IMG/VR virus record: IMGVR_UViG_3300023173_001364
Location: 1 to 64,000 of that record
Direction: 5' to 3' (one strand)
DNA length: 64,000 bases
Source: an uncultured virus (IMG/VR IMGVR_UViG_3300023173_001364)
Lineage: Duplodnaviria > Heunggongvirae > Uroviricota > Caudoviricetes
Shown here: piece by piece, positions 10,762 through 31,511 of the stretch
Numbering within the stretch: the stretch's first letter is position 1
Layout of the letters: each line of letters opens with the position of its first letter
Program-made: the position numbers and the translations under genes
The notes under the pieces: model-generated
What the model saw: the letters and a program-made list of their open reading frames with translations, nothing else
What the model was told of the DNA's origin: nothing
Database searches by the model: none

Positions 10762-10790
10762 AATATAGTGTAAGATGTCTTGGATGTCAA
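10762..10790 (-). promoter_or_regulatory. Early sigma70-type promoter with CCAAGACATC spacer
   Basis: TTGACA-TCCAAGACATCTTACAC-TATATT; 32 bp (10759-10790) identical to 60646-60677. Confidence 0.85.
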
Positions 10791-10849
10791 TACCTAAATG
10801 CATCTTTTTTAAAAAAAATCATAATAAATATAAAAAAGAGGATCGCAGT

Positions 10850-15977: not shown

Positions 15978-16556
15978 TTATCTCACTGGCCAACCATTAA
16001 ACCATGTAATTAATGCATAGCGAGTGCCTTTAGTAACAGGATGCACTTTGTGTAGATACCAACTTGGAAAAAATATTACAGTTCCTTTTGTTGGCTTTAT
16101 GAGCCCTCTCTCAGCAGGAACAGTGCTCGGATGAAATTCAAATTCTCCACCTTCAAAATCTTCATTGAGCCATGCAACAAATGAAATTTTTCTAGTTTTT
16201 CCGTGTAAAAATTCATTTCCGGGATAGTTCAAAGGCTGAACACCATTTCCATCCATATGGAATTTATAATGGCCACCATCTTCGTATTTGCCAAGAGTAA
16301 ATGATTCTGCAGCCGATATTTCAAAATTCCATCCTGCATTTTGATTTGCCATTTCCATCAATGACCAAAATGTATCGTATAGCCATTGCTCGTTACTCCA
16401 TGCCAACTCTGTCTTTCTAATTTCATGATTTGACTCTACTGCAACTGCAGCATCTAGCCATTCAGCATTATCTCCTATACCCATAATACGTTCGATTGTA
16501 TTGTCATCTAGTATGTTTGGGTATATCCAATAATCGGCTCTTCTTAAATCTTCCAT
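15978..16556 (-). CDS. 2OG-Fe(II) oxygenase (prolyl-4-hydroxylase-like)
   Basis: Y.FHMD, RKISF, FEGGEF, FPS..LHKVHPVTKGTRYAL..W. Confidence 0.92.
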   Translation of the reverse strand: MEDLRRADYWIYPNILDDNTIERIMGIGDNAEWLDAAVAVESNHEIRKTELAWSNEQWLYDTFWSLMEMANQNAGWNFEISAAESFTLGKYEDGGHYKFHMDGNGVQPLNYPGNEFLHGKTRKISFVAWLNEDFEGGEFEFHPSTVPAERGLIKPTKGTVIFFPSWYLHKVHPVTKGTRYALITWFNGWPVR

Positions 16557-17968: not shown

Positions 17969-18138
17969 TAGTACTCTACCGTTTGTACAACATTTTTTAA
18001 TGTGTATTCTTCATCTCGTCTGTTGCGTCCTAAATCATAACTAACATTGGATCGTTGCAATAGTTTATCTAATCTATTTAAGCGATCGATTGTTTCTTTA
18101 AGTTCTTCAACTAATTTTTCTGTACGTGGTTCTTTCAT
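17968..18138 (-). CDS. Hypothetical small protein
   Basis: TAATG coupling to metK stop. Confidence 0.55.
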   Translation of the reverse strand: MKEPRTEKLVEELKETIDRLNRLDKLLQRSNVSYDLGRNRRDEEYTLKNVVQTVEY

Positions 18139-19226
18139 TACCAACCAATCCTTTCCCAAGGAACATCTTTGTTTCCAAAGTGCCCATATGTACAGTTACT
18201 ACTATACTGTGTAAAGTTAAATAAGTCAAATCTATCAATAATACCTTTTGGTGTTAAGTTAATATTGTTCTCGATAAACTTTTGAATACTGCGATTATGT
18301 CCATTTGAATCAACATATATACTTGTCGGCTCTTTAACACCTATAGCATATGATAACTGAATCTGACACCAATCTGCCATATCGTCTGCTACTACGTTTT
18401 TAGCAAGCCACCTAGCCATATAGGCAGCACTGCGATCTACCTTTGTTGGATCTTTACCACTAAAAGCACCGCCACCATGAGGAGCAAATCCGCCGTAAGT
18501 ATCCACGATAATTTTACGTCCAGTAACGCCAGCATCACCGTCAGGCCCACCAATAACAAAGTTACCGGTAGGATTAATATGCCATACAGTTTTATCATCT
18601 ATTAAATCTCCTAGTACATCTCCTACAGCACTGCGGATAGGCATCTTTACACTTTCACCAAAACCTTCACGATGCTGTTGGCTTACAACTACTTGATCAA
18701 TGCGCTTTACACGCCCGCCTTCGTATTCAACACTTACTTGTGATTTAGCGTCTGGACCTAAGTATTCGTAACCGTCCTTACGCATATCACGCAAACGTTT
18801 TAGTATTTCATGCGAGTAGTAAATTGGTGCTGGCATATATGCTTCGTTGTCATTACATGCATAGCCAAACATAATACCTTGATCGCCTGCTCCAAAATCA
18901 TCTGTACCTAGTGCAATGTCTCCGCTTTGAGCATGAATTTCATTATAGATATTTAAATTATCCCAATGAAATCCTTCTTGCTCGTAGCCAATTTCTTTGA
19001 CTTTATTGCGTACAATTTCTTTAACTTCGTCTTTGCTTACATTAAAGTTTTTTACTTCGCCTGCCAATGTTACATGATTGGTAGTTACAAGTGTTTCAAC
19101 AGCAACACGAGTTGTTTCATCTCCTGCTGCTAAACCAGCATCGACAAGTGCATCTGAGATTTGGTCTGCTACTTTGTCTGGGTGTCCATCGCTAACACTT
19201 TCGCTAGTAAAAATATAGTTGTTCAT
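18138..19226 (-). CDS. metK: S-adenosylmethionine synthetase
   Basis: FTSESVSDGHPDK, GAGDQG, GRKIIVDTYGG, GGGAFSGKDPTKVDRS. Confidence 0.97.
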   Translation of the reverse strand: MNNYIFTSESVSDGHPDKVADQISDALVDAGLAAGDETTRVAVETLVTTNHVTLAGEVKNFNVSKDEVKEIVRNKVKEIGYEQEGFHWDNLNIYNEIHAQSGDIALGTDDFGAGDQGIMFGYACNDNEAYMPAPIYYSHEILKRLRDMRKDGYEYLGPDAKSQVSVEYEGGRVKRIDQVVVSQQHREGFGESVKMPIRSAVGDVLGDLIDDKTVWHINPTGNFVIGGPDGDAGVTGRKIIVDTYGGFAPHGGGAFSGKDPTKVDRSAAYMARWLAKNVVADDMADWCQIQLSYAIGVKEPTSIYVDSNGHNRSIQKFIENNINLTPKGIIDRFDLFNFTQYSSNCTYGHFGNKDVPWERIGW

Positions 19227-19292
19227 AAATGTTTCCTTATCTTTTCGTATTGCTCTTCGGTGTGTATTCCTTTACTATATTTGGCAACCTCT

Positions 19293-20189
19293 TTAAGTTC
19301 CCCAGGCATTTCCGAATAAGCTGATGTGGAGTCTAGGCGAGAACCTCCACCCTCGTTCCATACAGAGGTTCGCCACCTCTTGTACGTTGAGTGTGTATTC
19401 TTCACTACGCCCTCCAAGCGGCATGAGGTATACAGGTACGTCCACGCCTGCTTCACGATAGGTATCGACAGCTCTACTAACTTCGTCAACATCGTCTTGA
19501 TCAGCAACAACAAACTTAAAGTACATATCAGCGCCATCCACAAGGGAATACTCACGAGCAACATCAGACTTGATAGCATCACTCCAAGACTCGCCTGAAA
19601 CTGAGAGTTTTGGGGAACACGAAAAAGTAACTTTAATTCTGTCATTGTTGTTGAGATAATTGTAGAAGTCGTTGTGTAACTGTTGTGTAGTGTTTGTTTC
19701 AATTGTGACATTTTTTAAATCCTGCATACCTGGGTGTTCAAATAACTCGACATATAAACGCTGCCAAGCAAGTAATGGCTCGCCGCCTGTAAGAATTAAG
19801 TGTACGTCCTGGCCGTTATCCATAGTCCATTTGCCTTCCGGCAACAAACTAAGCAAGTGTTCTACAACTTCGTCGACTGTTGCAAGTCGATTAAAGTCTT
19901 TAAACTCTGGATAAATGCTTGCATATGTATCACAACCAGTGTGTACAATAGGCAAGTCTTCAAACTTTTCTGTTTTTTCTACAATACCATCATCTAGCAA
20001 TGCTTTTACTTCTGCATTGTAACGATTGCCTTCTGCATGTTGTTTCCAGCGATCACCTACACTTTTATCAACACCAAAGTTCATACAACGAAAGTTACAA
20101 CCAAAAGTACGTAGAAATACACTTGGTACTCCTACGTATTTACCCTCGCCTTGTACACTATAAAATGCTTCGCTATATCTAAGTTTCAT
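19293..20189 (-). CDS. queE: 7-carboxy-7-deazaguanine synthase (radical SAM) with atypical cluster spacing
   Basis: EAFYSVQGEG, VFLR.FGCNFRC...GCDT, LTGGEP, IETN, SPKL, FSPRLH. Confidence 0.9.
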   Translation of the reverse strand: MKLRYSEAFYSVQGEGKYVGVPSVFLRTFGCNFRCMNFGVDKSVGDRWKQHAEGNRYNAEVKALLDDGIVEKTEKFEDLPIVHTGCDTYASIYPEFKDFNRLATVDEVVEHLLSLLPEGKWTMDNGQDVHLILTGGEPLLAWQRLYVELFEHPGMQDLKNVTIETNTTQQLHNDFYNYLNNNDRIKVTFSCSPKLSVSGESWSDAIKSDVAREYSLVDGADMYFKFVVADQDDVDEVSRAVDTYREAGVDVPVYLMPLGGRSEEYTLNVQEVANLCMERGWRFSPRLHISLFGNAWGT

Positions 20190-20409
20190 CTTCTTCTTTC
20201 TTTGTTATTTGCCATGCACCAGGAGTTATTTCTTCCCAGAGCAGTGTGTCTCCATCATCCCAACCAACTTGGTTGAGCATTTCTGGAGGCAGTTCAACAT
20301 ACAATTCTTTGTCTTTACCGTTTTCTTGTACAGTAACGACCCAGTTATTATCTCTTAGTTTACGATATGGTTCTTTAGTTGTCAACTGTTTCTTCCTCTG
20401 CACGTGCAC
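20179..20409 (-). CDS. AbrB/MazE-like small DNA-binding protein (start uncertain)
   Basis: YVELPPEML.QVGWDDGDTL.W. Confidence 0.65.
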   Translation of the reverse strand: MHVQRKKQLTTKEPYRKLRDNNWVVTVQENGKDKELYVELPPEMLNQVGWDDGDTLLWEEITPGAWQITKKEEDET

Positions 20410-21121
20410 GTTTTTCTGCTAATTCGTCTTCGTAGTATTCCCATGCTTCGTCCCAATAATCATCACCTTCGTGCATATGACTATCTTCCCAACGTTTATT
20501 AAACCATGCTACTTGTGCATAATAACCCTTTCCACGACTATCAACAAAATCATAATCTTGTTCGATTTCTTCTTTGTTATACCATAAACGTTCAATCATT
20601 TCGCCGTGATCTGTTTCTACACCAGACACCGCAACCAAGTTAGGATCAAATTCTTCTCCGTCTTTGAGTTCTACAATCCAGCCGCCGAACTCTCCTTTTT
20701 CTGCACTATAAAACATTAGCACAGGAACACTATTATCCTCTTCTTCTTCATCTTGTGGCTCTTCTTGTGTATAGCATTCACGACTGTATAATTGATGTGG
20801 ATCGAAATCAATACGTTTGTCCCAATCAATTTCGTTATCTTCGTCTAGTTCGAACGCCATTAATTCAAGTCCGTTACTAGCTGTTTGGTGATGAATGTCG
20901 TCAATCTCGTACCAACTGTTATAGTACTCCATATCCTCTAAAATGTCAGGACTGTCTGGATCGATGTCTTCGCCGTCTTGCCAATCTTCTAGTGCTTGCA
21001 AATGATTAATAAGTTCATCTTCGTCACGTCCTTGCCAGTATGTAACAAACTCTGGTGTTACTGTACCAATAGTCATTTCGCCGCCGTAGTTGCTACCACG
21101 AATATAAATTTTCTTACCCAT
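20375..21121 (-). CDS. Highly acidic hypothetical protein
   Basis: 248-aa D/E- and aromatic-rich ORF. Confidence 0.7.
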   Translation of the reverse strand: MGKKIYIRGSNYGGEMTIGTVTPEFVTYWQGRDEDELINHLQALEDWQDGEDIDPDSPDILEDMEYYNSWYEIDDIHHQTASNGLELMAFELDEDNEIDWDKRIDFDPHQLYSRECYTQEEPQDEEEEDNSVPVLMFYSAEKGEFGGWIVELKDGEEFDPNLVAVSGVETDHGEMIERLWYNKEEIEQDYDFVDSRGKGYYAQVAWFNKRWEDSHMHEGDDYWDEAWEYYEDELAEKRARAEEETVDN

Positions 21122-21359
21122 TTTCTTTCTCCCATAGTACTGTGTCCATGTGACTAATTAAGTTACTGAATCCGATTTGCATTACACTATAATCGTGTAG
21201 TTCTTCTCTGTATGCTTCAATTTCTGCTAGTTGGTCACCATCTAGTTCTTCTACATTATCGATACCGTAGTGTTCACACACATATTCATAAACATCGTCT
21301 GTAATATTACGTTCGTGGTTTTCTTCCCACTTGTGTATTCTATTCCATTCAAAACTCAT
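21114..21359 (-). CDS. Small acidic hypothetical protein
   Basis: ORF coupled to neighbours. Confidence 0.6.
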   Translation of the reverse strand: MSFEWNRIHKWEENHERNITDDVYEYVCEHYGIDNVEELDGDQLAEIEAYREELHDYSVMQIGFSNLISHMDTVLWEKENG

Positions 21360-21508
21360 TTTGACTTTCCTCTTTTGCCAACTTTAAATGTATATTCAAT
21401 ATCTTCAGGATCGGTTTTTTCGCCTGCTTCGCATACAGTTACTTTATTCTTTTTTAACCATTCATCTATAGCTTTGTTTTCTTGATCTGATAGTTGTGGT
21501 CTACTCAT
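21356..21508 (-). CDS. Small hypothetical protein
   Basis: MSRPQ start; ATGA coupling. Confidence 0.55.
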   Translation of the reverse strand: MSRPQLSDQENKAIDEWLKKNKVTVCEAGEKTDPEDIEYTFKVGKRGKSK

Positions 21509-21674
21509 CGCTATTCCTATGTTGTATGCAAATTGCTTTTTCGTTATTTTCAAATGTTGCTTCTAAAACTGCACGTTCGATTGAACAACGGTTACCGTCT
21601 TGATATAACTCGTAGTGTGTAAGACGGACTTCATCACTACCATAAACTGTGCTTAGTACTACTAGTATCCACAT
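21501..21674 (-). CDS. Unannotated 57-aa secreted-type protein with 2 Cys
   Basis: MWILVVLSTVYG...C...C; same architecture as 13199..13459. Confidence 0.6.
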   Translation of the reverse strand: MWILVVLSTVYGSDEVRLTHYELYQDGNRCSIERAVLEATFENNEKAICIQHRNSDE

Positions 21675-21678
21675 TGTG

Positions 21679-21840
21679 CTATCCTTGTACTGCTATATGC
21701 TGTGCTTCACGTTCGGCTGTTTCAACAATTTTAGCAAGTTCGTTTAGACGATCTGCTACTTCTCTAAAGTAACTGTTTCCGGTTGCACGAGCTTTATCAT
21801 GTAACCACATTACCATTTGACTGTCTTTTTCATTTATCAT
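21679..21840 (-). CDS. Unannotated 53-aa protein
   Basis: MINEKDSQMVMWLHDKAR...; ATGA coupling to the PRTase stop. Confidence 0.55.
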   Translation of the reverse strand: MINEKDSQMVMWLHDKARATGNSYFREVADRLNELAKIVETAEREAQHIAVQG

Positions 21841-22391
21841 TTATCATACTCCCAAGGAAAAACAATCCAAGGATCGCCTTCGCTAGTATCCACTGTTTTC
21901 CAATTATAATTTACACCGTCAAAAATTGTATGTGTTTTTTCACACATTGTAGCAAAGCGAACGTTTTGTCCCCATACAGTGTCCCAATTTGGATGAGCAG
22001 GTAAGCAGTTCTTTTGCCAATCATCTTTAATCCAGTTAAAGGTAGCACCAGTATCGTTGATATCATCTACAATGAGTATATTCTTTTTCTTAGCAGGATC
22101 GCTTGTAGCTTTACTCCAAACATCATCTCTACCAATCTCGGATACATAACCAAATGCATCTTCTGCCATCCAACAATTTGATTCAGGACCATTGCCGCTA
22201 CCGTCACGTAATCTAACATCTAGTGTATACATGTTAGCATCTATCAAATGACTAATACGCAGTGCTAATGGCAAGCCACCTCTGTTAAGTCCTACAATAT
22301 AATCTGGACGCCACGCATCATTATACATTTGTAACACAATGTCTGTGGCAGCATCATGCAAATCATTGTATGTGTAATATTGTTTGTTCAT
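21837..22391 (-). CDS. Type I phosphoribosyltransferase (xanthine/guanine PRT-like)
   Basis: IVGLNRGG, ILIVDDINDTGAT PRPP-binding loop, WIVFPWE. Confidence 0.9.
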   Translation of the reverse strand: MNKQYYTYNDLHDAATDIVLQMYNDAWRPDYIVGLNRGGLPLALRISHLIDANMYTLDVRLRDGSGNGPESNCWMAEDAFGYVSEIGRDDVWSKATSDPAKKKNILIVDDINDTGATFNWIKDDWQKNCLPAHPNWDTVWGQNVRFATMCEKTHTIFDGVNYNWKTVDTSEGDPWIVFPWEYDK

Positions 22392-22732
22392 TTCATACTT
22401 TCTATTGCTAGTTTTGCAGTTAGCATAACATTTTTATTTTTGAAAGTCAACACCAAATACTGCTCAAATGAACTAGAAGCGGTTTCTCCTGTTCCATACT
22501 CAAAACTTTTCCAAGTAAAATCTTTTCCATATTCTAGTCCGAGTTGTCCTAGTATATTGCTTACACGTGCAAGTGCATCGACAGGTGTATATCCTGCATT
22601 AAGAGCACCGCCCCCACCAGATAAATGATTGGGGCGGTTACTCAATTTGTTAACTGAAATTTCCAGTTTATTGTTCACGCAGTTTACCACTAATTGCTTT
22701 GAGTAATAAACCGTATGCTGGAAGGAATACAA
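22388..22732 (-). CDS. Hypothetical protein (true start probably downstream)
   Basis: ORF between yhhQ and PRTase. Confidence 0.5.
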   Translation of the reverse strand: MYSFQHTVYYSKQLVVNCVNNKLEISVNKLSNRPNHLSGGGGALNAGYTPVDALARVSNILGQLGLEYGKDFTWKSFEYGTGETASSSFEQYLVLTFKNKNVMLTAKLAIESMK

Positions 22733-23258
22733 TTAGACCTACTACAATTTTTAGTACTGTTTGTGATCCTGCAATCTCCATCCAATGTGCAGCCATATAT
22801 TCATCTGCGCTGTTGTGGAAAGCAACTGCAAAGAATGTGTAACTGTCAATTACGTTTGCAACAACAGTTGATAGTGCAGGTGCAGCCCACCATGCTTTGT
22901 AGTTTTCACGTATCCATTGGAACACGTAAACATCAAGCATTGCTCCAACTGCGTATGCAGTAGCACTTGCAAAACCAATACGTAGTGCAACACTCATTGG
23001 TGCGCCTTCTAGCATTACTACTAAAATGCTACCAATAATTGCTAGTGGATATGCATATGCAATTGTTGATCTTGCAGTTTCTTTACCAAGAAGTCTTACT
23101 GTAAGATCAGTAGCAACAATAACAATTGGGAACGTAAACGCTGCCCATGTTAATTTAACACCAAAGATTTCTACTGGAATCCCTACTAGTGCGTTTGAAA
23201 TAGTAATAACAATAACATGCAATAATGCAAGTTTCATTACTAAACTTTTATTTGTCAT
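22668..23258 (-). CDS. yhhQ: 7-cyano/7-aminomethyl-7-deazaguanine transporter (VUT family)
   Basis: Multi-TM; ISNALV, TWAAFTFP...ATDLTVRLLG, RIGFASATAY, LDVYVF, IDSYTFF.VAF. Confidence 0.9.
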   Translation of the reverse strand: MTNKSLVMKLALLHVIVITISNALVGIPVEIFGVKLTWAAFTFPIVIVATDLTVRLLGKETARSTIAYAYPLAIIGSILVVMLEGAPMSVALRIGFASATAYAVGAMLDVYVFQWIRENYKAWWAAPALSTVVANVIDSYTFFAVAFHNSADEYMAAHWMEIAGSQTVLKIVVGLIVFLPAYGLLLKAISGKLREQ

Positions 23259-23269
23259 AATTTTCTCCT

Positions 23270-23956
23270 TCAACGTGGCGCAAATTCTTGTTGTAGTTTA
23301 ATGTTGTCAAAGAATTCTTTCTTTGTTCCCATGTCTTTATTAAATGCGCCGTGCAGCACACTAGTTTGTGTTAAACTAGAATGTGCCATAATGCCTCTGT
23401 TTTCACAACAGCCGTGTGTAGCTTGTACGTATACGCCTACGTCTCCGCTACCTGTAGCTTTCATGATTTCTTTAGCAATATCGTTAGCAAGTTCTTCTTG
23501 TAGTGTTCCACGTCTAGCACACCATTGTGCCAAACGAGTGTACTTGCTAAGTCCAATCAGTTTTTGTGCAGCAATAATACCGATGTATGCTACACCAGTT
23601 ACTGGTTGGTGATGATGCGAACACATACTACGTAGTTCGCTTCTAACAACTAGCATGCCTTCATAACGATCATTGCTGTCATTAGGGAAACTAGTTGCAC
23701 TAGGGCGAGGATCATATCGTCCGCCCATAATCTCATTAATATACATTTTAGCAAGTCTGCGTCCGGTATCCATACTGTTTGGATCGTTGTGTCTATCGAT
23801 TACCAAACTGTCTAGTACACTTTCGAACTTGCCTGTAAGTTCTTCGATAAGTTCTTCCTTATCACCATTTTGCATAACTTCGCTAATGTTATCACCTGCC
23901 CAATAGCGGATGCCTGCATCATCGAGTCGTGCTTTTAATTGTTCGCTTTTTGCCAT
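23270..23956 (-). CDS. folE: GTP cyclohydrolase I
   Basis: SMCSHH, GLSKY.R, LQEEL, HGCCENRG. Confidence 0.95.
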   Translation of the reverse strand: MAKSEQLKARLDDAGIRYWAGDNISEVMQNGDKEELIEELTGKFESVLDSLVIDRHNDPNSMDTGRRLAKMYINEIMGGRYDPRPSATSFPNDSNDRYEGMLVVRSELRSMCSHHHQPVTGVAYIGIIAAQKLIGLSKYTRLAQWCARRGTLQEELANDIAKEIMKATGSGDVGVYVQATHGCCENRGIMAHSSLTQTSVLHGAFNKDMGTKKEFFDNIKLQQEFAPR

Positions 23957-24005
23957 TATATTCTCCTAGTTATACACGGCGAGACGTGTTATATTCAATA
24001 TACTT

Positions 24006-24206
24006 TTATGCAAAGTATTTGTCAAGCATTTCAAGGACATCGTCATACTTTGCAATTTCCATAATTTCCATTTCCATTGCTTCAATAATGTCCGGGTGTT
24101 CACCAATTCCTGTAGTATTATTTAGGTAAACTTCTACATTTGCCTTATGTTTATCTACGTGTCCTTTAGCATGACTACGTAGTGCTTCTAATAGAATCTC
24201 ACGCAT
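24006..24206 (-). CDS. Conserved small phage protein
   Basis: ANVEVYL...GIGEHPDI. Confidence 0.7.
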   Translation of the reverse strand: MREILLEALRSHAKGHVDKHKANVEVYLNNTTGIGEHPDIIEAMEMEIMEIAKYDDVLEMLDKYFA

Positions 24207-25299
24207 TTACTATTTCCTTTCCTTCAATTTTATCATATAATTTACTGCCACTAAAAAATTTGTTATGCAATTCTGCTGCATTACTATTTAGGTAATTACT
24301 ATAGTTTTTATGATTTTGCATATACTTACGAATACGCTCTATAACTTTACCTTTATGTTTTTGATAACTATCCCATGACTCTGTCCATTCACTTGGATAT
24401 CTAAATTCCTCATCATACATTTCTGTATAACTTAAACGATCTGGAACCATCGGAATAGCACCTACTAACATACCTTCAAATGCACTAATACCTAGTGTTT
24501 CTTGCAGGTTAGCACTAAACACAATCTTAGCTTCTCCTAGTATATTATGATATTCATTTTTAGTTAGTTGTTTTTCCTGACAAACAATAAACTCGTATTC
24601 AGTAAGTTCTTTTTTTAGATCATTAAAAATTTCTAACTGTTTCTCAGGAGCAAGCCTGTGTGGAAATACAATAGTGTCACGTTTTTCCATATTTTTATAT
24701 GGAAGCATTGTATCACGTAAGTATTCCATTGGCCATCCTACAATACTAACGTTGTCTTGTTCCATAAACCATTCTGCAGGTTCGAGACCAAACATTGTTT
24801 TAAACTCTAGCAAATTCTCTGCAAATATTTTAGCATGAAACTCTGTAGCAAAGAAGTTGTCATCAAATACATGAAACATACTTTTCTCTGCATAACGTAC
24901 CCAAGGTTTATTACCTATAAGTCTTCCTAAAAAATCTTGAGGATCATAGCTACCAGCATGCCACATACCACCAATAGTGATTTGAACACCTAATAGCTCT
25001 GCCATATACTTGAGTTGGATAACTGTAGGATTCCAAGCATCTGTGTATAAGAAATAGTCTCCGTCTTTAATTTCTCCGTTGCAAAACATTTCGCCTATTG
25101 TTTCAAGTTGTTTAGACTTGTAAACATTAGTACCGCCGAAATTAAGAAAAGCGCCAGGTGTAGTAGCTTGCGGAGTTTCACCTCCGCTAATAACTACTAC
25201 ATTATCTGTACGCTTTTGTAGTTGCTTAGGTAGATAATCTTTCCACTGTTTAGTATATCGAGTATCTACTGCTTCGATGTCAACTATATATACAGTCAT
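24199..25299 (-). CDS. GT-B fold glycosyltransferase (GT4-like)
   Basis: WHAGSYD, FPHRLAPEK, QETLGISAFE (Ex7E) motif. Confidence 0.85.
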   Translation of the reverse strand: MTVYIVDIEAVDTRYTKQWKDYLPKQLQKRTDNVVVISGGETPQATTPGAFLNFGGTNVYKSKQLETIGEMFCNGEIKDGDYFLYTDAWNPTVIQLKYMAELLGVQITIGGMWHAGSYDPQDFLGRLIGNKPWVRYAEKSMFHVFDDNFFATEFHAKIFAENLLEFKTMFGLEPAEWFMEQDNVSIVGWPMEYLRDTMLPYKNMEKRDTIVFPHRLAPEKQLEIFNDLKKELTEYEFIVCQEKQLTKNEYHNILGEAKIVFSANLQETLGISAFEGMLVGAIPMVPDRLSYTEMYDEEFRYPSEWTESWDSYQKHKGKVIERIRKYMQNHKNYSNYLNSNAAELHNKFFSGSKLYDKIEGKEIVNA

Positions 25300-25643
25300 T
25301 AAGCTGCCTTAGGTTGATACACACCTACGTGAATTTTAAGTTTCTTAGGGCTACGTTCAGCACTAAGTTTTACACTTACATCGTAAGTAATTGCAGTGTC
25401 ACGAATCATTCCTTGAATGTCGTAACTTTGAATTAAATTAGCATATTTAAGATCACTTAAATATAAGTTAAACAAACGACGAACAGTTTCTTCACTGCCT
25501 CGATTTGTCGCTAGTACACCGTCATATGGTTCGATAATCTTAATAAGATCCCACTTAACGTCATTTACACTTACACGCCCTTGACGAACGTCACGAATAT
25601 CAGTTGCTACATTATTCATAGCTGCATGTTGCTCCGTTTTCAT
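25299..25643 (-). CDS. Hypothetical protein
   Basis: ORF coupled between QueD-like and GT genes. Confidence 0.65.
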   Translation of the reverse strand: MKTEQHAAMNNVATDIRDVRQGRVSVNDVKWDLIKIIEPYDGVLATNRGSEETVRRLFNLYLSDLKYANLIQSYDIQGMIRDTAITYDVSVKLSAERSPKKLKIHVGVYQPKAA

Positions 25644-26046
25644 TATCCTCGCTTACAGTAATTGTCATTTTGCGATTAGGATATTTGTTGTTAATTGCTT
25701 CTGCAAGATCATCACAAATCATCTCACAGGATTTAAAGTCAAGTTGCAGAGTATTTTCTGCATAAAGTTTTTCTAACCAGCGTTTAAACTGGATAAATTC
25801 AATGTCTCGATCGTCGTGGAATACTTCAATCTCAACTTTAAAATGAAACATATGACGATGAACATAACCTAAGAAACTTACGTCATACTCGTCACCAGTT
25901 GCAAGATTGGGATCATCTATTGCTGCAGGATACTTGTGTAACCCTTCTTTTTGAAAGGTGACCCAAATATTTGTTTTTGTTTTATTCATTTTGTTATCTT
26001 CCTCACGCATACGCCGAAGCATATATTCGTAATAACGTTCTTGCAT
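25612..26046 (-). CDS. dpdL: QueD-like T-fold protein, probable CDG decarboxylase (DpdL-type)
   Basis: EGLH, LGYVHRHMF (LxxxHRHxF in place of QueD CxxxHGH), RDIEF, SCEM, VSEDNEN. Confidence 0.7.
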   Translation of the reverse strand: MQERYYEYMLRRMREEDNKMNKTKTNIWVTFQKEGLHKYPAAIDDPNLATGDEYDVSFLGYVHRHMFHFKVEIEVFHDDRDIEFIQFKRWLEKLYAENTLQLDFKSCEMICDDLAEAINNKYPNRKMTITVSEDNENGATCSYE

Positions 26047-26225
26047 TATTTGTCTTCAGTATCAGTATCAATAACTGATAGTTTTTTCTCAACTCTCTGC
26101 ATGATTTGCATCATTTCCCATAACTTCCAATCCATTGTTTTTGCAAGTTCATAAAACGATTCCATAGATGCTTCTTCAGTTTTTTCTTCTACAGGTTCGT
26201 CAATAACACGAATTTTCTTAACCAT
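26046..26225 (-). CDS. Unannotated 59-aa protein
   Basis: MVKKIRVIDEP...MDWKLWE; fills the gap with stop/start coupling. Confidence 0.6.
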   Translation of the reverse strand: MVKKIRVIDEPVEEKTEEASMESFYELAKTMDWKLWEMMQIMQRVEKKLSVIDTDTEDK

Positions 26226-26400
26226 TTTTTATTTCCTTTTTAACGGTTTCAATTTGTTCTTTTAGTTTAAGTTTTTGCTTCTTAAGACTTTTTATACTTA
26301 ATTCAGCATTAGTATGTTTATACAACTGTTCTATTTCTTTGTCAAGTGTTCTGTGTTTCTTTTCCAAACTTTTTAACAGTTGTGTTTTTTCTCGGGGCAT
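26218..26400 (-). CDS. DUF465/YdcH-like coiled-coil protein
   Basis: LEKKHRTLDKEI...LKKQKLKLKEQI. Confidence 0.7.
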   Translation of the reverse strand: MPREKTQLLKSLEKKHRTLDKEIEQLYKHTNAELSIKSLKKQKLKLKEQIETVKKEIKNG

Positions 26401-26806
26401 TTTCTACTCTTTCCCTTAGATCACTTGTACTGAATCTGTGATCTCTTTTATTAAAGTACAGTTCAATACCACGCTTACGACAAATTTCTTTGCCAGTAAA
26501 ATCTTTTTCACGATATTCTTCGCCTAGTATACGCATATCGATGTGATACATTGTTAAAATATCAATCAGATCTTGTTCAGTTTCATATGGGACAATTTCA
26601 TCTACATATTCTACTGCGCTCAGTTGTGCATAACGCTCAACTAAACTTTGCACAGGCTTATTTTTTTCACCTGGTCTATCAATAGTCGGATCGGTTTGGA
26701 GACCGACTATCAAATAATCGCAATGTTCTTTTGCTTCACGTAACATAATAATATGTCCTGCATGAAGCAAGTCAAATGTACTACATGTAAAGCCTACTTT
26801 AGTCAA
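26342..26806 (-). CDS. Cytidylyltransferase (TagD/glycerol-3-phosphate cytidylyltransferase-like)
   Basis: STFDLLHAGH, LIVGL, KPVQ..ER, VDEI, RDHRFSTS. Confidence 0.9.
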   Translation of the reverse strand: MTKVGFTCSTFDLLHAGHIIMLREAKEHCDYLIVGLQTDPTIDRPGEKNKPVQSLVERYAQLSAVEYVDEIVPYETEQDLIDILTMYHIDMRILGEEYREKDFTGKEICRKRGIELYFNKRDHRFSTSDLRERVENAPRKNTTVKKFGKETQNT

Positions 26807-27312
26807 ACTACTGTATCTCCTACATATTCACGCCAGTCTGTGTAGACTTTGCGTTTTTGTAATTCATGTAAATTATGACACCAAACACCTGGATTACTAT
26901 GTCCCCATGTTGTATCATCTAGTTTAAGTGTTGCATTATAATTGAACTGTTTAATGTATGGAAGTTTAACACTTATCATACTAATATAGTTATCATATTC
27001 GTCAAACCCACATTCAAGTACATTAGATGCATGTTCTACACCAAAGTCCAATGTACACCAGTAACCTTCTTTAAGTAAAGGTGTAATCATATTTACCCAA
27101 AGTTCATATTCTTCCCAATTGTTAGGATTAAAACTTTGACTTGTACCAAAGTACAAGTGTTTAATTTTATGTTCATCTGCTTTTTGTGCAATTTCTTTAG
27201 AATCTCGAACACCAACTACGAACAGTGTTTTTTCACCTTTCATGCAAGTGTTTTCAATTTCAGTACCAATAAAGTAAACTACGTCTTGGCGTTCGTCTGT
27301 ATTTAATCCCAT
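26803..27312 (-). CDS. Conserved hypothetical protein in the deazaguanine cluster
   Basis: YF.GTE.E, TLFVVG, HLYFG, NPGVWC, YTDW..Y..D. Confidence 0.7.
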   Translation of the reverse strand: MGLNTDERQDVVYFIGTEIENTCMKGEKTLFVVGVRDSKEIAQKADEHKIKHLYFGTSQSFNPNNWEEYELWVNMITPLLKEGYWCTLDFGVEHASNVLECGFDEYDNYISMISVKLPYIKQFNYNATLKLDDTTWGHSNPGVWCHNLHELQKRKVYTDWREYVGDTVV

Positions 27313-28196
27313 TTGATATAACCTCTGCTATAGCCTTCAGGTCGATTAACTGCATCTTCAAAGGCTTGTTTCCATTCATTATCACGATTATAACCTTTAG
27401 TCCAAATATTGTCAAGGTTTAATTTATTTGTTTCTTGCCATGTTACTGCTACATTCAATGCTTGTATAAAACTAACAGCACGTGGACTTGGAAAATGCAT
27501 TGTTACATTATTCCATAACCAACTACTAAAATTTGTCATAACCATATCGGCTTTTTCGGCTGCCATAATTACAAGTCCGTTTGGTGCAACTTCTACTCTC
27601 ATAAGTCTACTAGTATCACTTAAATCAATTACAACATCGTATTCAGTTGTATCAACGTCAGACATAAGCAAATCGCCCCAATAGTCTGCATTACTATGTC
27701 CTACTACAGTAATATCGTCGTACTCTAGTTTGACAATTTTCATTGTTTGATGTACAACACGAGCTAAAAACCCTGTACCTAATATAAGAACTTTGCCGCC
27801 TTCACGTCTGCGTAAGTCTTCTAAACTATTTAGAATTACATTAATACCACATGCAACAGGTTCTGCAATGTATTTAGGATCTAATTCAGGAACATTTACA
27901 TAAGTGCCTTCTCGAGCAACATAGTAGTCTGCATATGCAGGCTCTCCACGTGTTGCAACATACTCTCCTGTTGCTGTGTTGATACCTAATCCTTCGTGTC
28001 CGTGCATATGTGCAGGTAACAGCTGGAAGTCACCTTGCATCATTGCAACATCACTGCGACACACTCCAGTCATAACTGCTTTGACTAGTATGTCGCCTTT
28101 ATTTAATTCTGGGATTACGTAAGTAGTTTCATAAAATGCACCTTGCCCATCTGTAGCAAGAGCTCTTACAGTGTCGCCACATGTCGGTGTATCCAT
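27303..28196 (-). CDS. Zn-dependent (MDR family) sugar/polyol dehydrogenase
   Basis: GVCRSD, GHEG, EPVAC, ILGTGFLA; AAGGAG RBS before ATG 28196. Confidence 0.85.
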   Translation of the reverse strand: MDTPTCGDTVRALATDGQGAFYETTYVIPELNKGDILVKAVMTGVCRSDVAMMQGDFQLLPAHMHGHEGLGINTATGEYVATRGEPAYADYYVAREGTYVNVPELDPKYIAEPVACGINVILNSLEDLRRREGGKVLILGTGFLARVVHQTMKIVKLEYDDITVVGHSNADYWGDLLMSDVDTTEYDVVIDLSDTSRLMRVEVAPNGLVIMAAEKADMVMTNFSSWLWNNVTMHFPSPRAVSFIQALNVAVTWQETNKLNLDNIWTKGYNRDNEWKQAFEDAVNRPEGYSRGYIKWD

Positions 28197-29026
28197 AGAT
28201 CCATCTCCTTTTGATGTTTCCAAAAATTATCGTTTTTCCAATTATCAATTGCAGCGTTAATCATATTTTCATATGCACTTTCTGGACACAACGGACCTAG
28301 TTCAATCCGTTCGTCGTCAAAATAAATTGCAAAATCATCTGTTGTTTTACTTCTCCAATTAGAGTATATCTCAAAATTTTGATATGTCAATAAACAATAG
28401 TCATCTACATCATATACACCATTTTCAATTACATCACCATAGTCACTATCTGTTAGGTCATCTAATGTCCAGTTCTGTTTTAGAGATGTTTGTGTTCTAA
28501 CTGAATGTTTCCAAGTTGGATATAGTAACTGATAGATGCTCAGTAAGTGTGGAGTTAAGTCTCTACTGACACCGCCATATGCTAGTTTTTTATTAGTAAA
28601 CCAGCTACCCGGACGTGGTACTCTGTTACTGTTAACCCAACAAATTTTTATATTTTCTGCGGAACTTGCACGTTGTTTTAGTTCTTCTATCTCTGCGTCT
28701 GACCATCTGTGTTGATTATTTTTGGTCATCATAAATCTTGTTGTAGGATTATATGTGCAAAGTTTATTCCATTGATCTACATTCTTAACACCGGGCTTTT
28801 CTACAAACACAATGTCACTAACTTTAGCTGCAGCATTTGCTAAATCATAATGTGTTGTATTAGGAGTACAAATGTGTGCAGTAGCAAATGACTGATCTTC
28901 TGGAATTTCAATATAGTCGGCATCTTTGTTGTAAGGATCTACGTATACAATATCCCAACCTAAGCGTTCGTATATGCTACCATATACTGCTTTACCAAAT
29001 CCCATGCCGACTATAAGTGTTTTCAT
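28166..29026 (-). CDS. Gfo/Idh/MocA-family oxidoreductase
   Basis: IVGMGFG, ICTPN..H, VFVEKP, GGV..DL.PH. Confidence 0.88.
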   Translation of the reverse strand: MKTLIVGMGFGKAVYGSIYERLGWDIVYVDPYNKDADYIEIPEDQSFATAHICTPNTTHYDLANAAAKVSDIVFVEKPGVKNVDQWNKLCTYNPTTRFMMTKNNQHRWSDAEIEELKQRASSAENIKICWVNSNRVPRPGSWFTNKKLAYGGVSRDLTPHLLSIYQLLYPTWKHSVRTQTSLKQNWTLDDLTDSDYGDVIENGVYDVDDYCLLTYQNFEIYSNWRSKTTDDFAIYFDDERIELGPLCPESAYENMINAAIDNWKNDNFWKHQKEMDLWIHRHVATL

Positions 29027-30540
29027 TATACTGCCTCAAATAAACTGTTAAATTGTGCACTAGTATTAACAGTTTTCTTTCCTACTGCACCACGTGTACC
29101 AACAACCATCATCCAAAGTTTTTCATGGTCATCAATCATTTTAAGTGCTTTTTCTTTATCGTCAAGTTCAAAGATACGTGCAATTACGTCTTTAACTTCT
29201 GTACGATCAAAACGGTTATCAACTAACATACTAGGATAATCTCCTGCATCATATGCTCTGTTTGCAGCTTGTACGCTATTGATATGTGTATAAGTGTTAT
29301 GATTCATCATAAGCATATAAGCAAAACTATCCCAAGATGTTTTAGTTTCTGTGCCCATTCTATTTGTATCGCCTGGCGCATAACAACAAATATCATTTAC
29401 TTTTAGACCTTCACTTAGTGGTGTAGGCATCCACGTATGTCCGTACTGTGCACAATGTTGTGTTGCATAGTCATCATACGATGTAGTATTTGTTGCAAGT
29501 TGACGATCATCAAATGCATCTCCCATCATATAACTCCACTTGCCATTATGATCTAGTCTATGTCCTGTGTAGAACTGTCCATTTGCAGTACATAAAAACG
29601 GACTTGCACAGTCAAATGTGATAGTAAAGTTTTCGTTATGATTCTTACGTACACCACGTTGTATTGCTGTAAGCACAAGTGCCCATTCTAGTTTACTTGT
29701 GCCCAAGAAGTGCATTACATCATGATAACCTTTTTCTAGCAATCCATCAAAACGTAGTTCAACTACACGTTTTAGTGCTAAATGAATATCACACATGTTT
29801 TGTCCACCCATTGCCCAGCCGTTAAAGTGTGCATCTGGATATTTTTTAGGATCACAATAGTGTTTCATTTGCGAATACCAATCGTCTGCTTGTGCAAAGT
29901 TTTCACCTTGTAGTACGTTTAAGAACTTACAGTCACCGCTACGATTGTTAATAAAGTATTCGTTGTTTTCTTGTGTGCCTTCTACTGCTTCTTGATAGCT
30001 ACCAATTTTACTTGCTGCAGCGCCATCTGGCGAACGACTTACCCATGCTGGAATATCAAGTATCATTCCATAGTCCATAAAGGCATCCATCCAACGTAGT
30101 ACGCCTTCACGTTTCTTTTGTGCTTGTGGACAGCCACTACCTTTGCGCCAGTCGCCTTCCCATTTGCCTTTACCAATTTGGAAGCCACCTGAGTCTCCTA
30201 GCAACCAACTAGCTGAACGATCTCTTACACGATATTGATCTTCACGGTACATATCTTTGTTTAAGTCTAGACTAGCGTGTCCTGCAGAGTGCAAACTCCA
30301 TTTGTATTGCCATAGTCCTTGATTGTCTAACCAATTGAGACTTTCAACACCGTTAGTTAAATGACTTGGGATACGATTTAAGTCAATGTAAGGAGTACCA
30401 GAGCCTTTTTTGTTTTCGTCAAATGGCTCTAGTCCTCGTCGCTGTCTACCCACAAACAGTGCATAGAATGTACTAAGTGCAGGCAAGAAAATAGCAAAGT
30501 CGTCTTGTCTGTCTGTTAAGTTTGTTGGTAGTTGTGTCAT
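29026..30540 (-). CDS. dpdA: TGT-fold base-exchange enzyme (DpdA-like 7-deazaguanine DNA transglycosylase)
   Basis: LGDSGGFQ, MILDIP, NVLQG, WAMGG, MHFLG, TFDCAS; context of folE/queE/yhhQ. Confidence 0.8.
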   Translation of the reverse strand: MTQLPTNLTDRQDDFAIFLPALSTFYALFVGRQRRGLEPFDENKKGSGTPYIDLNRIPSHLTNGVESLNWLDNQGLWQYKWSLHSAGHASLDLNKDMYREDQYRVRDRSASWLLGDSGGFQIGKGKWEGDWRKGSGCPQAQKKREGVLRWMDAFMDYGMILDIPAWVSRSPDGAAASKIGSYQEAVEGTQENNEYFINNRSGDCKFLNVLQGENFAQADDWYSQMKHYCDPKKYPDAHFNGWAMGGQNMCDIHLALKRVVELRFDGLLEKGYHDVMHFLGTSKLEWALVLTAIQRGVRKNHNENFTITFDCASPFLCTANGQFYTGHRLDHNGKWSYMMGDAFDDRQLATNTTSYDDYATQHCAQYGHTWMPTPLSEGLKVNDICCYAPGDTNRMGTETKTSWDSFAYMLMMNHNTYTHINSVQAANRAYDAGDYPSMLVDNRFDRTEVKDVIARIFELDDKEKALKMIDDHEKLWMMVVGTRGAVGKKTVNTSAQFNSLFEAV

Positions 30541-31272
30541 TTACTTACTTTGTGCTGGAAGGATATATTCGTATACCGCTAGTCCATTGTCTACTTCAAT
30601 CATTGCTGCGCCCATATCACTAAACTTCATAGTAATATCGCCTGTTAAGTTAAGAATATTCATAACTTCACTTACAGGATATTTCCAACTTTGATTTAAA
30701 TTACCGCCAACGCCTGGCTGGAATACAAAGTTACCTGTGTGACCACTGTCATCACCGAAGAAGAATTTTAGATCACCATCTTCTACTTTAGCAACAAACA
30801 AACTTTCTTCGCTATTAGCTTGTGCTTGCATTTTAAAGCGAGCAACACTTGCACTGTGTGGCTGTACTTCTACATCCCAATTAGCACCTTTAAAACGTAC
30901 ACTTGCTAGTTTTTCTTCCATTAGTTCTTTTTGCATAAAGCGGAAGTCGTTTTTAAAGTCGCCTGTTGCGTTTTCAAACTTCATACTAAACGGTTCTTGT
31001 TCACCGTTACGTTCACGTGTGTTAACAGTGATGTTTGCATTTTCCTTGTATTCAGGAATGTTAAGTAGAATGTTTAGTTTGCTCAAGTTAGGCATACCAA
31101 ATGTGCCATCTAATCCTGGAATAGCACTCTTATACTTTGCTTTAACAACAACAAAGTTATTGTCGTCTTTAGCTTCGATTTCTGTTGCAGCACTGTCGCT
31201 AACAACTTTAACTGCTTCGATGTTTCCTACACCGTGTGTATGTTTTACAATATCGAGTAGATAATCTCTCAT
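30541..31272 (-). CDS. Putative DNA polymerase sliding clamp
   Basis: 243-aa two-domain beta-rich protein next to polB; C-terminal YEYILPA. Confidence 0.65.
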   Translation of the reverse strand: MRDYLLDIVKHTHGVGNIEAVKVVSDSAATEIEAKDDNNFVVVKAKYKSAIPGLDGTFGMPNLSKLNILLNIPEYKENANITVNTRERNGEQEPFSMKFENATGDFKNDFRFMQKELMEEKLASVRFKGANWDVEVQPHSASVARFKMQAQANSEESLFVAKVEDGDLKFFFGDDSGHTGNFVFQPGVGGNLNQSWKYPVSEVMNILNLTGDITMKFSDMGAAMIEVDNGLAVYEYILPAQSK

Positions 31273-31511
31273 ATGTTTTTCCTTTTTATTAACTGTACGT
31301 TATAACTGCCTTGTGTGCGAGTATTAAATTTGTAGTTTCTTACAAATCTATTTAGGTGGAGCCATGTTTCAATTTCGTTACGTATCATTCCTTGTCCACA
31401 AATAATTTCACAAGATTTATAGTTATCATAATAACACTCTTGCAAGAACCTGTCAACCATTTTCCATGCAACATGTATATGATAACCATGTAAATCTAAA
31501 CTTCGCTTCAT
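31269..31511 (-). CDS. Stand-alone Smr/MutS2 domain protein
   Basis: LDLHG, EIICGQG. Confidence 0.8.
   Translation of the reverse strand: MKRSLDLHGYHIHVAWKMVDRFLQECYYDNYKSCEIICGQGMIRNEIETWLHLNRFVRNYKFNTRTQGSYNVQLIKRKNI

Follow-up and report, generated by a model that had tools for sequence, protein, structure and literature searches.

The closest described relatives of the locus reported here are phage loci with genes of the DpdA3 and DpdL families. In the DNA of Cellulophaga phage phiST all 2'-deoxyguanosine (dG) is replaced by 2'-deoxy-7-deazaguanosine (dDG; [M+H]+ 267.109), and DpdL, which carries the signature LxxxHRHxF in place of the CxxxHGH of QueD, was proposed to be a decarboxylase of 7-carboxy-7-deazaguanine (CDG) (Cui/Hutinet et al. 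2023, PMC10516641). Supplementary Data S1 of the same paper also assigns DpdL to the phages PA5oct and ACP17. Here, we analyze a stretch of 64,000 nucleotides (nt), henceforth called the window, which forms positions 1 to 64,000 of a viral record of 73,747 bases (IMG/VR IMGVR_UViG_3300023173_001364). The record is estimated to cover about 21% of one genome, and its source is an uncultured marine giant phage.

Judged by its genes, the core of the locus is of the published DpdA3/DpdL kind that does without QueC, and it would provide a route to dDG. Joined to this core is a conserved gene for a glycosyltransferase (GT). Our reading, to which we assign a probability of about 0.5, is that guanine is replaced by a QueC-less DpdA3/DpdL pathway encoded in the replication operon, together with a GT whose sugar possibly ends up on the base. 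A first-pass annotation of the window had proposed a 7-deazaguanine locus fused with a module for activation and transfer of a sugar or polyol. The deazaguanine locus, its place in a replication operon and the GT tied to it have stood, while the supposed pair of genes for cytidine-diphosphate (CDP) polyols and the supposed QueD have not.

All 15 genes named at first pass, from polB to metK, are present in the order given, on the minus strand between positions 18138 and 34201 (Table 1). The tight coupling claimed for them is likewise found: successive open reading frames (ORFs) overlap at 22 of the 26 junctions between polB and the ORF after metK, and the remaining four comprise one exact abutment and gaps of 4, 49 and 66 nt. 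The gene list was correct in what it named but omitted the ORFs between the phosphoribosyltransferase (PRTase) gene and queE, an interval that holds four small ORFs, a very acidic protein of 248 amino acids (aa) and an ORF of 76 aa. Among giant-phage polymerases, the polB product is closest to those of the Phosso, Atu_ph07 and RaK2 group (43-49% identity), Phosso and Atu_ph07 being the closest cultured relatives (47-49%). No near-identical DNA was found among cultured phages.

Read from the translation, the T-fold protein encoded by the gene first described as QueD-like has the motif L59-G-Y-V-H63-R64-H65-M-F67, i.e., LxxxHRHxF, with Leu for the Cys and Arg for the Gly of QueD, and by this motif and by homology it is not QueD but its paralogue DpdL. 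Its identity is 58.7% to PA5oct QCG76199.1, a protein for which Supplementary Data S1 of PMC10516641 gives the name DpdL, 57.1% to the product of the ACP17 locus 85838-86179, and 31.8% (E 4e-8) to phiST CGPG_00067, the last being matched by a hidden Markov model (HMM) with E 3e-20. Over the named DpdL proteins, the HMM matches have E values between 3e-20 and 3e-67. PF01242 (PTPS/QueD) has no match at E 0.01 in the whole record, DpdL included. The genomic context is that of DpdL as well, as FolE, QueE and DpdA are encoded in the operon and QueC is absent from the record. The first-pass statement that QueC and QueF are missing holds for all 73,747 bases, in which neither PF06508 (QueC) nor PF14489 (QueF) has a match, and QueC was found in none of the three complete genomes of PA5oct, ACP17 and Phosso. 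True QueD is encoded elsewhere on four of five larger related contigs. Because the QueD-like gene is dpdL, the base to be expected is 7-deazaguanine (DG), as in phiST, rather than CDG; of the initial prediction of CDG or DG, what remains is a QueC-less 7-deazaguanine DNA-modification locus with DG as its product. As to QueE, the NCBIfam QueE models match the protein in two separated stretches, both under their cut-offs, which suggests that, compared with its bacterial counterparts, it holds a large insertion.

The predicted base-exchange enzyme, a protein of 504 aa, has no significant sequence match in Pfam, PHROG, NCBIfam or PDB (phmmer and profile searches). For this protein and for the 366-aa GT, searches of these databases gave nothing significant, and it was the structure models that identified them. 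The AF2 model of the 504-aa protein has a pLDDT of 91.7. All of the top 50 Foldseek matches are tRNA-guanine transglycosylases (TGTs; E about 1e-6), and comparison with TGTs by VIA yielded Z 18-19 and a root-mean-square deviation (rmsd) of 4.4-4.7 Å over 287-305 aligned residues. The model thus has the (beta/alpha)8-barrel fold of TGTs. In an alignment with 56 relatives D116, S117, G119, P164, H277, G280 and D310 are invariant; these include the residues of the TGT motifs quoted at first pass (D116, S117, G119, H277, G280 and D310). D116 and D310, the aspartates of the DSGG(F/L)Q and (F/Y)D motifs, presumably correspond to D102 and D280 of the Zymomonas TGT, an equivalence that we take from the motifs and from a weak profile alignment (E about 1.9) to chain residues 101-232. 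As regards the Zn-binding Cys/His cluster of classical TGTs, no Cys column of the 56-sequence alignment is invariant or nearly so.

The 504-aa protein is a member of the DpdA3 family. It shares 31.5% identity over 84% of its length with PA5oct QCG76197.1 (local HMM E 2e-163), a protein that PMC10516641 enters as DpdA3 in its Supplementary Data S1. Its family also matches the DpdA of ACP17 with an hhalign probability of 96%, a relative that the same supplement enters as DpdA2, and, more weakly, the 259-aa DpdA3 of phiST (CGPG_00065; probability 61-79%). In a library of 1.8 billion proteins, 882 cluster representatives belong to the family at E <= 0.001. The enzyme is predicted to swap guanine in DNA for 7-deazaguanine; DNA is named as its substrate because of the genomic context, a C-terminal tail that resembles that of the polymerase, and the published data on phiST and PA5oct DNA.

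The GT-B glycosyltransferase recognized at first pass is real and tied to the deazaguanine locus, as judged by fold, invariant residues and synteny. Its AF2 model (pLDDT 82.5) finds BA1558, BshA, MshA, glycogen synthase and PimB' by Foldseek at E 6e-9 to 1e-6, and VIA aligns residues 1-362 with retaining GT-B enzymes at Z 19-22 and rmsd 3.0-4.3 Å (291-324 aligned residues). The two Rossmann domains of the GT-B fold are present, and the nearest structures belong to the retaining families GT4, GT5 and GT20 (BshA, MshA, PimA/B', sucrose-phosphate synthase, OtsA). At rank 38 of the Foldseek list stands a tetrahydrobiopterin glucosyltransferase of family GT4. Among viral models, the top match is the ACP17 homologue (TM 0.83-0.89), which UniProt names 'Glycosyl transferase family 1 domain-containing protein'. 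In 22 sequences E267 and E275 (E-x7-E), H214, R215 and K220 are invariant; we take these to be donor-site motifs of GT4 enzymes, with Arg and Lys for the diphosphate.

The distribution of the GT was studied in IMG/VR loci anchored either on the TGT-like gene (38 loci) or on the GT (the best 80 of at least 577), with flanks of 8-10 kb; flanks and contig ends may hide genes in all presence counts. GT occurs in 31 of the 38 TGT-anchored loci. The seven others end at most 791 nt past the TGT match, and the shortest TGT-GT distance is 1,234 nt. Co-occurrence of the GT with dpdA, suggested at first pass as a check, is seen in that 73 of the 80 GT-anchored loci have a TGT-like match; DpdL is present in 79 of the 80. 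All misses lie at contig starts, with the GT beginning at most 1,475 nt from the start of the locus. Those loci in which both genes reach >=60% coverage, 97 in all, were dereplicated at 97% GT DNA identity to 74 marine loci, and in every one of these the GT sits in the company of dpdA3 and dpdL. Within the flanks, DpdL and a conserved 169-aa protein are found in all 74, the clamp in 72, the PRTase in 60, FolE in 59, the cytidylyltransferase in 44, QueE in 36, the Gfo/Idh/MocA-type oxidoreductase and the Zn-dehydrogenase in 23 each (the same loci), YhhQ in four and MetK in two.

A similar picture emerges from phage records. A tblastn search with the GT returned 23 of them, 18 of which match at >=78% coverage: Phosso, eleven PA5oct-like records, two records of ACP17, the Xanthomonas phages BUDD and X1, BCSR5 and the Synechococcus phage BUCT-ZZ01. 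All 18 also have a DpdL match. The other five, without DpdL, belong to a Xanthomonas/Erwinia phage group and match at 64% coverage and 25% identity. The gene order is polB, clamp, DpdA3, GT, DpdL and then QueE in PA5oct; QueD, FolE, 169-aa homologue, DpdA, GT, DpdL, QueE in ACP17; FolE followed by GT, TGT, DpdL and QueE in BUDD; and QueE, PRTase, QueD, FolE followed by the TGT-like gene, DpdL and GT in BUCT-ZZ01, whose gene set is contained in BCSR5 entirely inside 6 kb. The GT neighbours in ACP17, BUDD, BCSR5 and BUCT-ZZ01 are TGT-like with hhalign probabilities of 92-96%. Since the GT follows DpdL and not DpdA3, as phage 2.275.O also shows (see below), we place its role downstream of the DpdL product.

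Two Vibrio phages show the core in other compositions. Phage 2.275.O (MG592671.1, 321309-340805) encodes a 596-aa protein of the DpdA3 family beside polB (hhalign probability 100%), in a locus with QueF, a YhhQ-like transporter, QueC, an amidotransferase-like (Gat) protein and FolE, and neither DpdL nor GT was found in this phage by tblastn. Such a gene content suggests that the replication-linked module also exists in a preQ1-type variant. Directly after its DpdA3 gene lies a 370-aa gene without identified family. In phage Bakedbeans (PQ768826.1), the DpdL match is the C-terminal end of the annotated 383-aa gp176, which suggests a fusion of DpdL to an N-terminal domain of no known family in a phage without detectable GT.

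A shared C-terminal peptide may also connect the locus with the replication fork. The product of the gene next to polB's small neighbour has no sequence or profile match in Pfam, NCBIfam or PDB. It is a probable sliding clamp by its Atlas feature hits, in clusters named PCNA-like or sliding clamp (0.95-0.98), and by the annotation of its Phosso homologue as sliding clamp, and not by its fold. The polymerase ends in ...TTFESLFDFG and the DpdA3-like enzyme in ...SAQFNSLFEAV, the latter preceded by a disordered stretch with pLDDT <50. In the related loci, 23 of 25 distinct polB C-termini and 15 of 21 distinct DpdA3-like C-termini carry an FxxLF tail; five of the other DpdA3-like termini, PA5oct included, have an acidic tail of the LxELE type and one is cut by the contig end. 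Complex prediction for the clamp candidate and the last 50 residues of the DpdA3-like enzyme scored 0.49 (median of three runs; best of three controls 0.00), with a contact agreement of at least 53% and a partner pLDDT of at least 42. The mark applied is passed by 116 of 157 solved complexes and two of 215 mismatched pairs, and scores up to 0.60 past the mark are reached by only 18 of the 157 solved complexes and by both passing mismatches. The tail shared with the polymerase suggests that the DpdA3-like enzyme may be tethered to the clamp through FxSLF.

From these elements the following scheme can be drawn up. GTP would be converted to CDG by FolE, QueE and a QueD whose gene lies elsewhere in the genome, following the chemistry of the established queuosine pathway. 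DpdL would convert CDG to DG, the role proposed for it in PMC10516641. The DpdA3-family enzyme, held at the fork by its clamp-binding tail, would then swap G in duplex DNA for the deazaguanine; here fold and motifs are observed, and tethering and DNA as substrate are what we infer. Up to this point, with G replaced by a 7-deazaguanine at or behind the fork, we regard the scheme as very probable. In a further step, the GT would move a sugar from a nucleoside-diphosphate sugar (NDP-sugar) to the DpdL product or to the inserted base. That it puts a sugar on deazaguanine is suggested by synteny and the conserved active site, and is held tentatively, at somewhat less than even odds. As DG has no hydroxyl, either the linkage would be unusual or the DpdL product would be a different one in the GT-bearing phages. 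In the lineage of the window, the dehydrogenases and the cytidylyltransferase might tailor or activate the transferred group, and the PRTase could recycle the released guanine or make deazaguanine nucleotides.

Table 1. Features of the window discussed in the text, from polB downwards (positions in the window; strand in brackets).
Feature	Position	Length	Assignment	Matches and remarks
polB	31508..34201 (-)		family-B DNA polymerase	PF00136 E 1e-32; phrog_262 E 5e-198
smr	31269..31511 (-)	80 aa	Smr-domain protein	PF01713 E 9.6e-13
clamp	30541..31272 (-)	243 aa	probable sliding clamp	phrog_12062
dpdA3	29026..30540 (-)	504 aa	DpdA3-family TGT-fold transglycosylase	
Gfo/Idh/MocA gene	28166..29026 (-)		Gfo/Idh/MocA-type oxidoreductase (accessory)	PF01408 E 2.6e-7
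Zn-dehydrogenase gene	27303..28223 (-)		Zn-type medium-chain dehydrogenase (accessory)	PF08240 E 8.9e-6; phrog_2640
169-aa protein gene	26803..27312 (-)	169 aa	conserved protein (core)	no family match
cytidylyltransferase gene	26342..26806 (-)		cytidylyltransferase, TagD/ECT/RfaE-II type (accessory)	PF01467 E 3.5e-16
dpdL	25612..26046 (-)		DpdL, QueD paralogue	real start probably M20
114-aa protein gene	25299..25643 (-)	114 aa	small protein	between dpdL and GT gene
GT gene	24199..25299 (-)	366 aa	retaining-type GT-B glycosyltransferase (core)	
folE	23270..23956 (-)		FolE, GTP cyclohydrolase I	PF01227 E 1.1e-37; phrog_2197
yhhQ	22668..23273 (-)		YhhQ-type queuosine-precursor transporter (accessory)	TIGR00697 112 bits (cut-off 51)
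PRTase gene	21837..22391 (-)		phosphoribosyltransferase	PF00156 E 6.3e-14; weak XPRT/HGPRT matches
acidic protein gene	20375-21121 (-)	248 aa		between PRTase gene and queE
queE	19293..20189 (-)	298 aa	QueE-like radical SAM enzyme (CDG synthase)	phrog_2076 E 5.3e-52
metK	18138..19226 (-)		MetK, S-adenosylmethionine (SAM) synthetase (accessory)	TIGR01034 432.6 bits (cut-off 309)
oxygenase gene	15978-16556 (-)		2-oxoglutarate (2OG)-Fe(II) oxygenase	phrog_61 E 6e-37
plus-strand gene	10775-12118 (+)			partial matches to virion structural proteins
DHFR gene	5660-6139 (-)		dihydrofolate reductase (DHFR)	
overlapping ORF pair	4820-5687 (-)			two halves of phrog_10255 'kinase'
thyA	3957-4823 (-)		canonical thymidylate synthase (ThyA)	

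The sugar- and polyol-related genes of the window are less constant than the GT. The cytidylyltransferase, called TagD-like at first pass, is indeed of the TagD/ECT/RfaE-II type: it matches TIGR02199 (E 4.5e-23) and TIGR01518 (E 2.5e-18), both under their cut-offs, and in PDB ethanolamine-phosphate cytidylyltransferase (E 1.7e-21) and TagD (E 1.3e-13), and thus resembles ethanolamine-phosphate and glycerol-3-phosphate cytidylyltransferases and domain II of RfaE. The Zn-dehydrogenase matches alcohol dehydrogenases of PDB down to E 8e-8 in its N-terminal domain only. Among solved structures, the Gfo/Idh/MocA protein comes closest to DgpA (E 1.2e-5), an enzyme of C-glycoside metabolism, but barely closer than to other family members, and we give the match no weight. 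The two oxidoreductases always come as a pair (23 of 74 loci). This pair and the cytidylyltransferase occur together in 11 of the 74 loci, the pair only in 12, the cytidylyltransferase only in 33 and neither in 18, although some of the loci labelled as lacking the cytidylyltransferase possibly just lack the upstream flank. Such independent occurrence speaks against the proposed TarJ/TarI-like pairing of dehydrogenase and cytidylyltransferase; in addition, TarI is of the IspD type and the cytidylyltransferase of the window is not. The GT belongs to the core, and the genes of the supposed activation module are lineage-variable accessories. When the four accessory states are placed on a quick maximum-likelihood GT tree, they need 13 changes, compared with a mean of 36.2 after shuffling (none of 200 shuffles as low), and the dehydrogenase pair turns up at four or more separate points. 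This fits a cassette-like variation of the transferred group without an obligate TarJ/TarI-like pair.

Unlike these genes, the 169-aa protein belongs to the core. It has no match in Pfam, PHROG, NCBIfam or PDB or by profile. Ten positions (E18, E20, T22, H52, D89, K130, D132, D133, N140 and W144) are invariant in 16 sequences, a homologue lies just upstream of dpdA in ACP17 (E 3e-20), and there are at least 7,996 metagenomic relatives, the best 120 of which are all without a name. Atlas points weakly to GH18 fragments, at 0.91 and 161 shared features, under the 170 that mark true family members, and comparison with phiST CGPG_00066 and with a Phosso 'glycosylase' shows no relation.

Further genes in and around the operon are mentioned for completeness. 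The Smr protein is wedged between the polB and clamp genes and conserved only among the closer relatives of the window; likewise, the 114-aa protein, for which Pfam, PHROG and NCBIfam give no family match, is kept only within the window's own sub-clade. The 248-aa protein has 72 Asp and Glu as opposed to 18 Lys and Arg residues and an isoelectric point (pI) of 4.05. It has no family match and a homologue in only four of the 74 related loci, and it could be a DNA mimic or an anti-restriction protein. Net charge and pI do not discriminate candidates for DNA binding here, nearly all proteins of the window being acidic. The 2OG-Fe(II) oxygenase gene lies approximately 1.6 kb downstream of metK. 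Outside the operon, the window also codes for a Lon-like protease, PhoH, ThyA, DHFR and tail proteins. Nothing seen within the window points to a hydroxymethyl-pyrimidine pathway, and its ThyA, accompanied by DHFR, passes the NCBIfam equivalog cut-offs for thymidylate synthase; a hydroxymethyl-pyrimidine as target of the GT is thus unsupported there, the record being a fragment. Of the two overlapping ORFs that match phrog_10255, the upstream one is P-loop kinase-like and the downstream one resembles nucleotidyltransferases of the nicotinamide-mononucleotide (NMN) adenylyltransferase type; the two could have arisen by splitting of one gene or could form a second pair for activation. The gene with partial matches to virion structural proteins is among the few on the plus strand, and the stretch around it is the most G+C-rich of the window (0.446 versus about 0.37).

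Several points weigh against our reading or against single links in it. The 74 marine loci are kin with inherited synteny and their counts are not independent, so that independent support for the linkage comes from a handful of cultured lineages. Among these, 10 of 28 DpdL-bearing phage records, including the phiST group, have no GT by tblastn, and in Phosso the DpdA3-like gene is approximately 170 kb away from the GT/DpdL cluster. At E 0.01 no Pfam family, Glycos_transf_1 included, matches the GT, and it has no significant sequence match in PDB, PHROG or NCBIfam. In the GT-bearing phages, a sugar on deazaguanine is predicted entirely from genes and models. 7-Deazaguanine bears no hydroxyl and offers no obvious acceptor to the GT, whose structural neighbours mostly glycosylate O and in some cases S or Se. 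The record is a fragment in which missing QueC or QueD genes show little, and the support that the complex prediction lends to clamp tethering is weak. The decarboxylation of CDG to DG by DpdL is a proposal in its source as well, and dDG could not be reconstituted in E. coli with dpdA and dpdL of ACP17, upon which the authors considered that further enzymes are possibly required (PMC10516641).

Some of these points also favour the view that the DNA contains plain dDG, as in phiST, and that the GT serves another acceptor, which may be a protein, a component of the host envelope or a small molecule arising as intermediate or by-product, or that it is a non-catalytic partner needed by DpdA3 or DpdL. 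PhiST attains 100% dDG with DpdL and without a GT (PMC10516641), and hence the GT is not needed for dDG. The missing hydroxyl of DG fits this view, as do the nearest solved structures of the GT, whose acceptors are small molecules (BshA, MshA and, at rank 38, the tetrahydrobiopterin glucosyltransferase), and the failed ACP17 reconstitution would agree with a helper role. We nevertheless consider it the less likely of the two views. The invariant donor-site residues argue for catalysis, variable sugar-tailoring genes in the same block would be odd for a non-catalytic helper, the GT is located among early replication genes instead of lysis or envelope genes, and its company with DpdL is kept throughout the 18 phage records and the 74 dereplicated loci.

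The deazaguanine could also enter the DNA before replication, the PRTase making a nucleotide that is reduced, phosphorylated and used by the polymerase, in which case the TGT-like enzyme may merely patch leftover G and the GT may act at the nucleotide level. PRTases make deazapurine nucleotides in the toyocamycin and tubercidin pathways, and a PRTase is encoded in 60 of the 74 related loci and, annotated as a xanthine-guanine PRTase, adjoins queE in BUCT-ZZ01; guanine salvage explains its presence equally well, and the block yielded neither a dedicated kinase nor a dedicated reductase. The complete replacement of G in DpdA3 phages is typical of pre-replicative routes, but the known cases were argued to be post-replicative, with DpdA always present (PMC10516641). 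As the TGT-like enzyme of the window keeps its invariant catalytic motifs and a polymerase-like tail, entry before replication seems improbable to us. More improbable still is that the genes serve not DNA but the supply of a tRNA queuosine precursor or a pterin glycoside. YhhQ, FolE and QueE are indeed shared with the tRNA-queuosine pathway, DpdL is a paralogue of PTPS and QueD, and a tetrahydrobiopterin-glucosylating GT4 enzyme is among the structural matches; however, with QueC and QueF absent from the record, and QueC from the three complete relatives, neither preQ0 nor preQ1 can be made, and DpdL lacks the catalytic Cys of QueD and PTPS, in its sequence here as in PMC10516641. The location of the genes, between the clamp gene and replication genes, and the polymerase-like tail of the TGT-like enzyme also speak against such a role. 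Moreover, phiST DNA holds dDG (PMC10516641), and PA5oct DNA withstands restriction enzymes that cut at G sites (PMC12191111).

To our knowledge, sugars on DNA bases have so far been seen on pyrimidines only (glucosyl- and arabinosyl-5-hydroxymethylcytosine and base J). A glycosylated deazapurine, if true, would add a new class to the natural chemistry of DNA. We consider it possible, with the doubts prevailing, that the window represents the first case described of a glycosylated purine in a genome, with an N- or C-glycosidic bond that the DpdL product may enable, with sugars varied by cassette and with a replisome-borne enzyme attached via its clamp tail. The DpdA3/DpdL core itself is already published (PMC10516641). 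The text of that paper does not contain 'glycosyl', and its supplement contains neither 'glycosyltransferase' nor the two GT accessions. The linkage of GT and DpdL was not found in print, and no glycosylated deazaguanine in DNA was found in the literature either, as the first-pass annotation had supposed; most subscription journals lie outside this search. The MIJ3 genome paper has nothing on DNA modification. With more than 7,000 metagenomic relatives each for the base-exchange enzyme, the GT and the 169-aa protein, the family is very abundant, and the presence of the same genes in cultured phages (PA5oct and relatives, ACP17, Phosso, BUDD, X1 and BUCT-ZZ01) makes the idea testable. A role of the GT could explain why dpdA and dpdL alone failed to reconstitute dDG (PMC10516641) and what the modified G of PA5oct is (PMC12191111). 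The modification also bears on how restriction, CRISPR and modification-sensing nucleases perceive such phages.

Compared with known systems, the likeness to teichoic-acid synthesis (TarJ/TarI, TagD) is confined to a Zn-type medium-chain dehydrogenase, a cytidylyltransferase and a transferase in one operon. The dehydrogenase of the window travels with the Gfo/Idh/MocA protein and not with the cytidylyltransferase, and its transferase looks like a GT4 enzyme that would use NDP-sugars, in contrast to a TagF-type phosphotransferase; TagF does not appear in the Foldseek and VIA listings for the GT model. The glucosyltransferases AGT and BGT of T4, invoked at first pass, are phage GT-B enzymes that decorate a non-canonical base against restriction and serve as a working analogy. 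The parallel is seen at the level of the fold: no sequence similarity was found, neither AGT nor BGT appears in the Foldseek and VIA listings of 50 entries, and their acceptor is the hydroxymethyl group of 5-hydroxymethylcytosine, whereas 7-deazaguanine has no such group. Glycosylated 7-deazaguanines are known outside DNA, namely mannosyl- and galactosyl-queuosine in eukaryotic tRNA and the N2-glycosylated natural products huimycin and dapiramicin, and they provide a chemical precedent for a sugar on such a base. In these compounds the sugar is carried by the cyclopentenediol of queuosine or by the exocyclic amine of a free base, and none of them is known from DNA; the mannosyltransferase of tRNA queuosine is also GT4-like. 

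Closer is phiST, which shares FolE, QueE, DpdL with LxxxHRHxF, a DpdA of the TGT superfamily, an adjoining polymerase and the absence of QueC with the window. It has no homologue of the GT or the 169-aa protein, its DpdA3 has 259 instead of 504 aa, and the window goes beyond it with two dehydrogenases, the cytidylyltransferase, YhhQ and MetK. In PA5oct, a Pseudomonas jumbo phage (Wroclawvirus), DpdA3 ends in an acidic LxELE-type tail and not in FxSLF, and dehydrogenases, cytidylyltransferase and a detectable 169-aa homologue are absent within the 19 kb examined. The portions of the END-nuclease preprint on which we draw do not give the chemical identity of its modified G (PMC12191111). Apart from these differences, PA5oct has the same run of polB, clamp, DpdA3, GT, DpdL and QueE as the window, with identities of 31% for DpdA3, 43% for the GT and 59% for DpdL.

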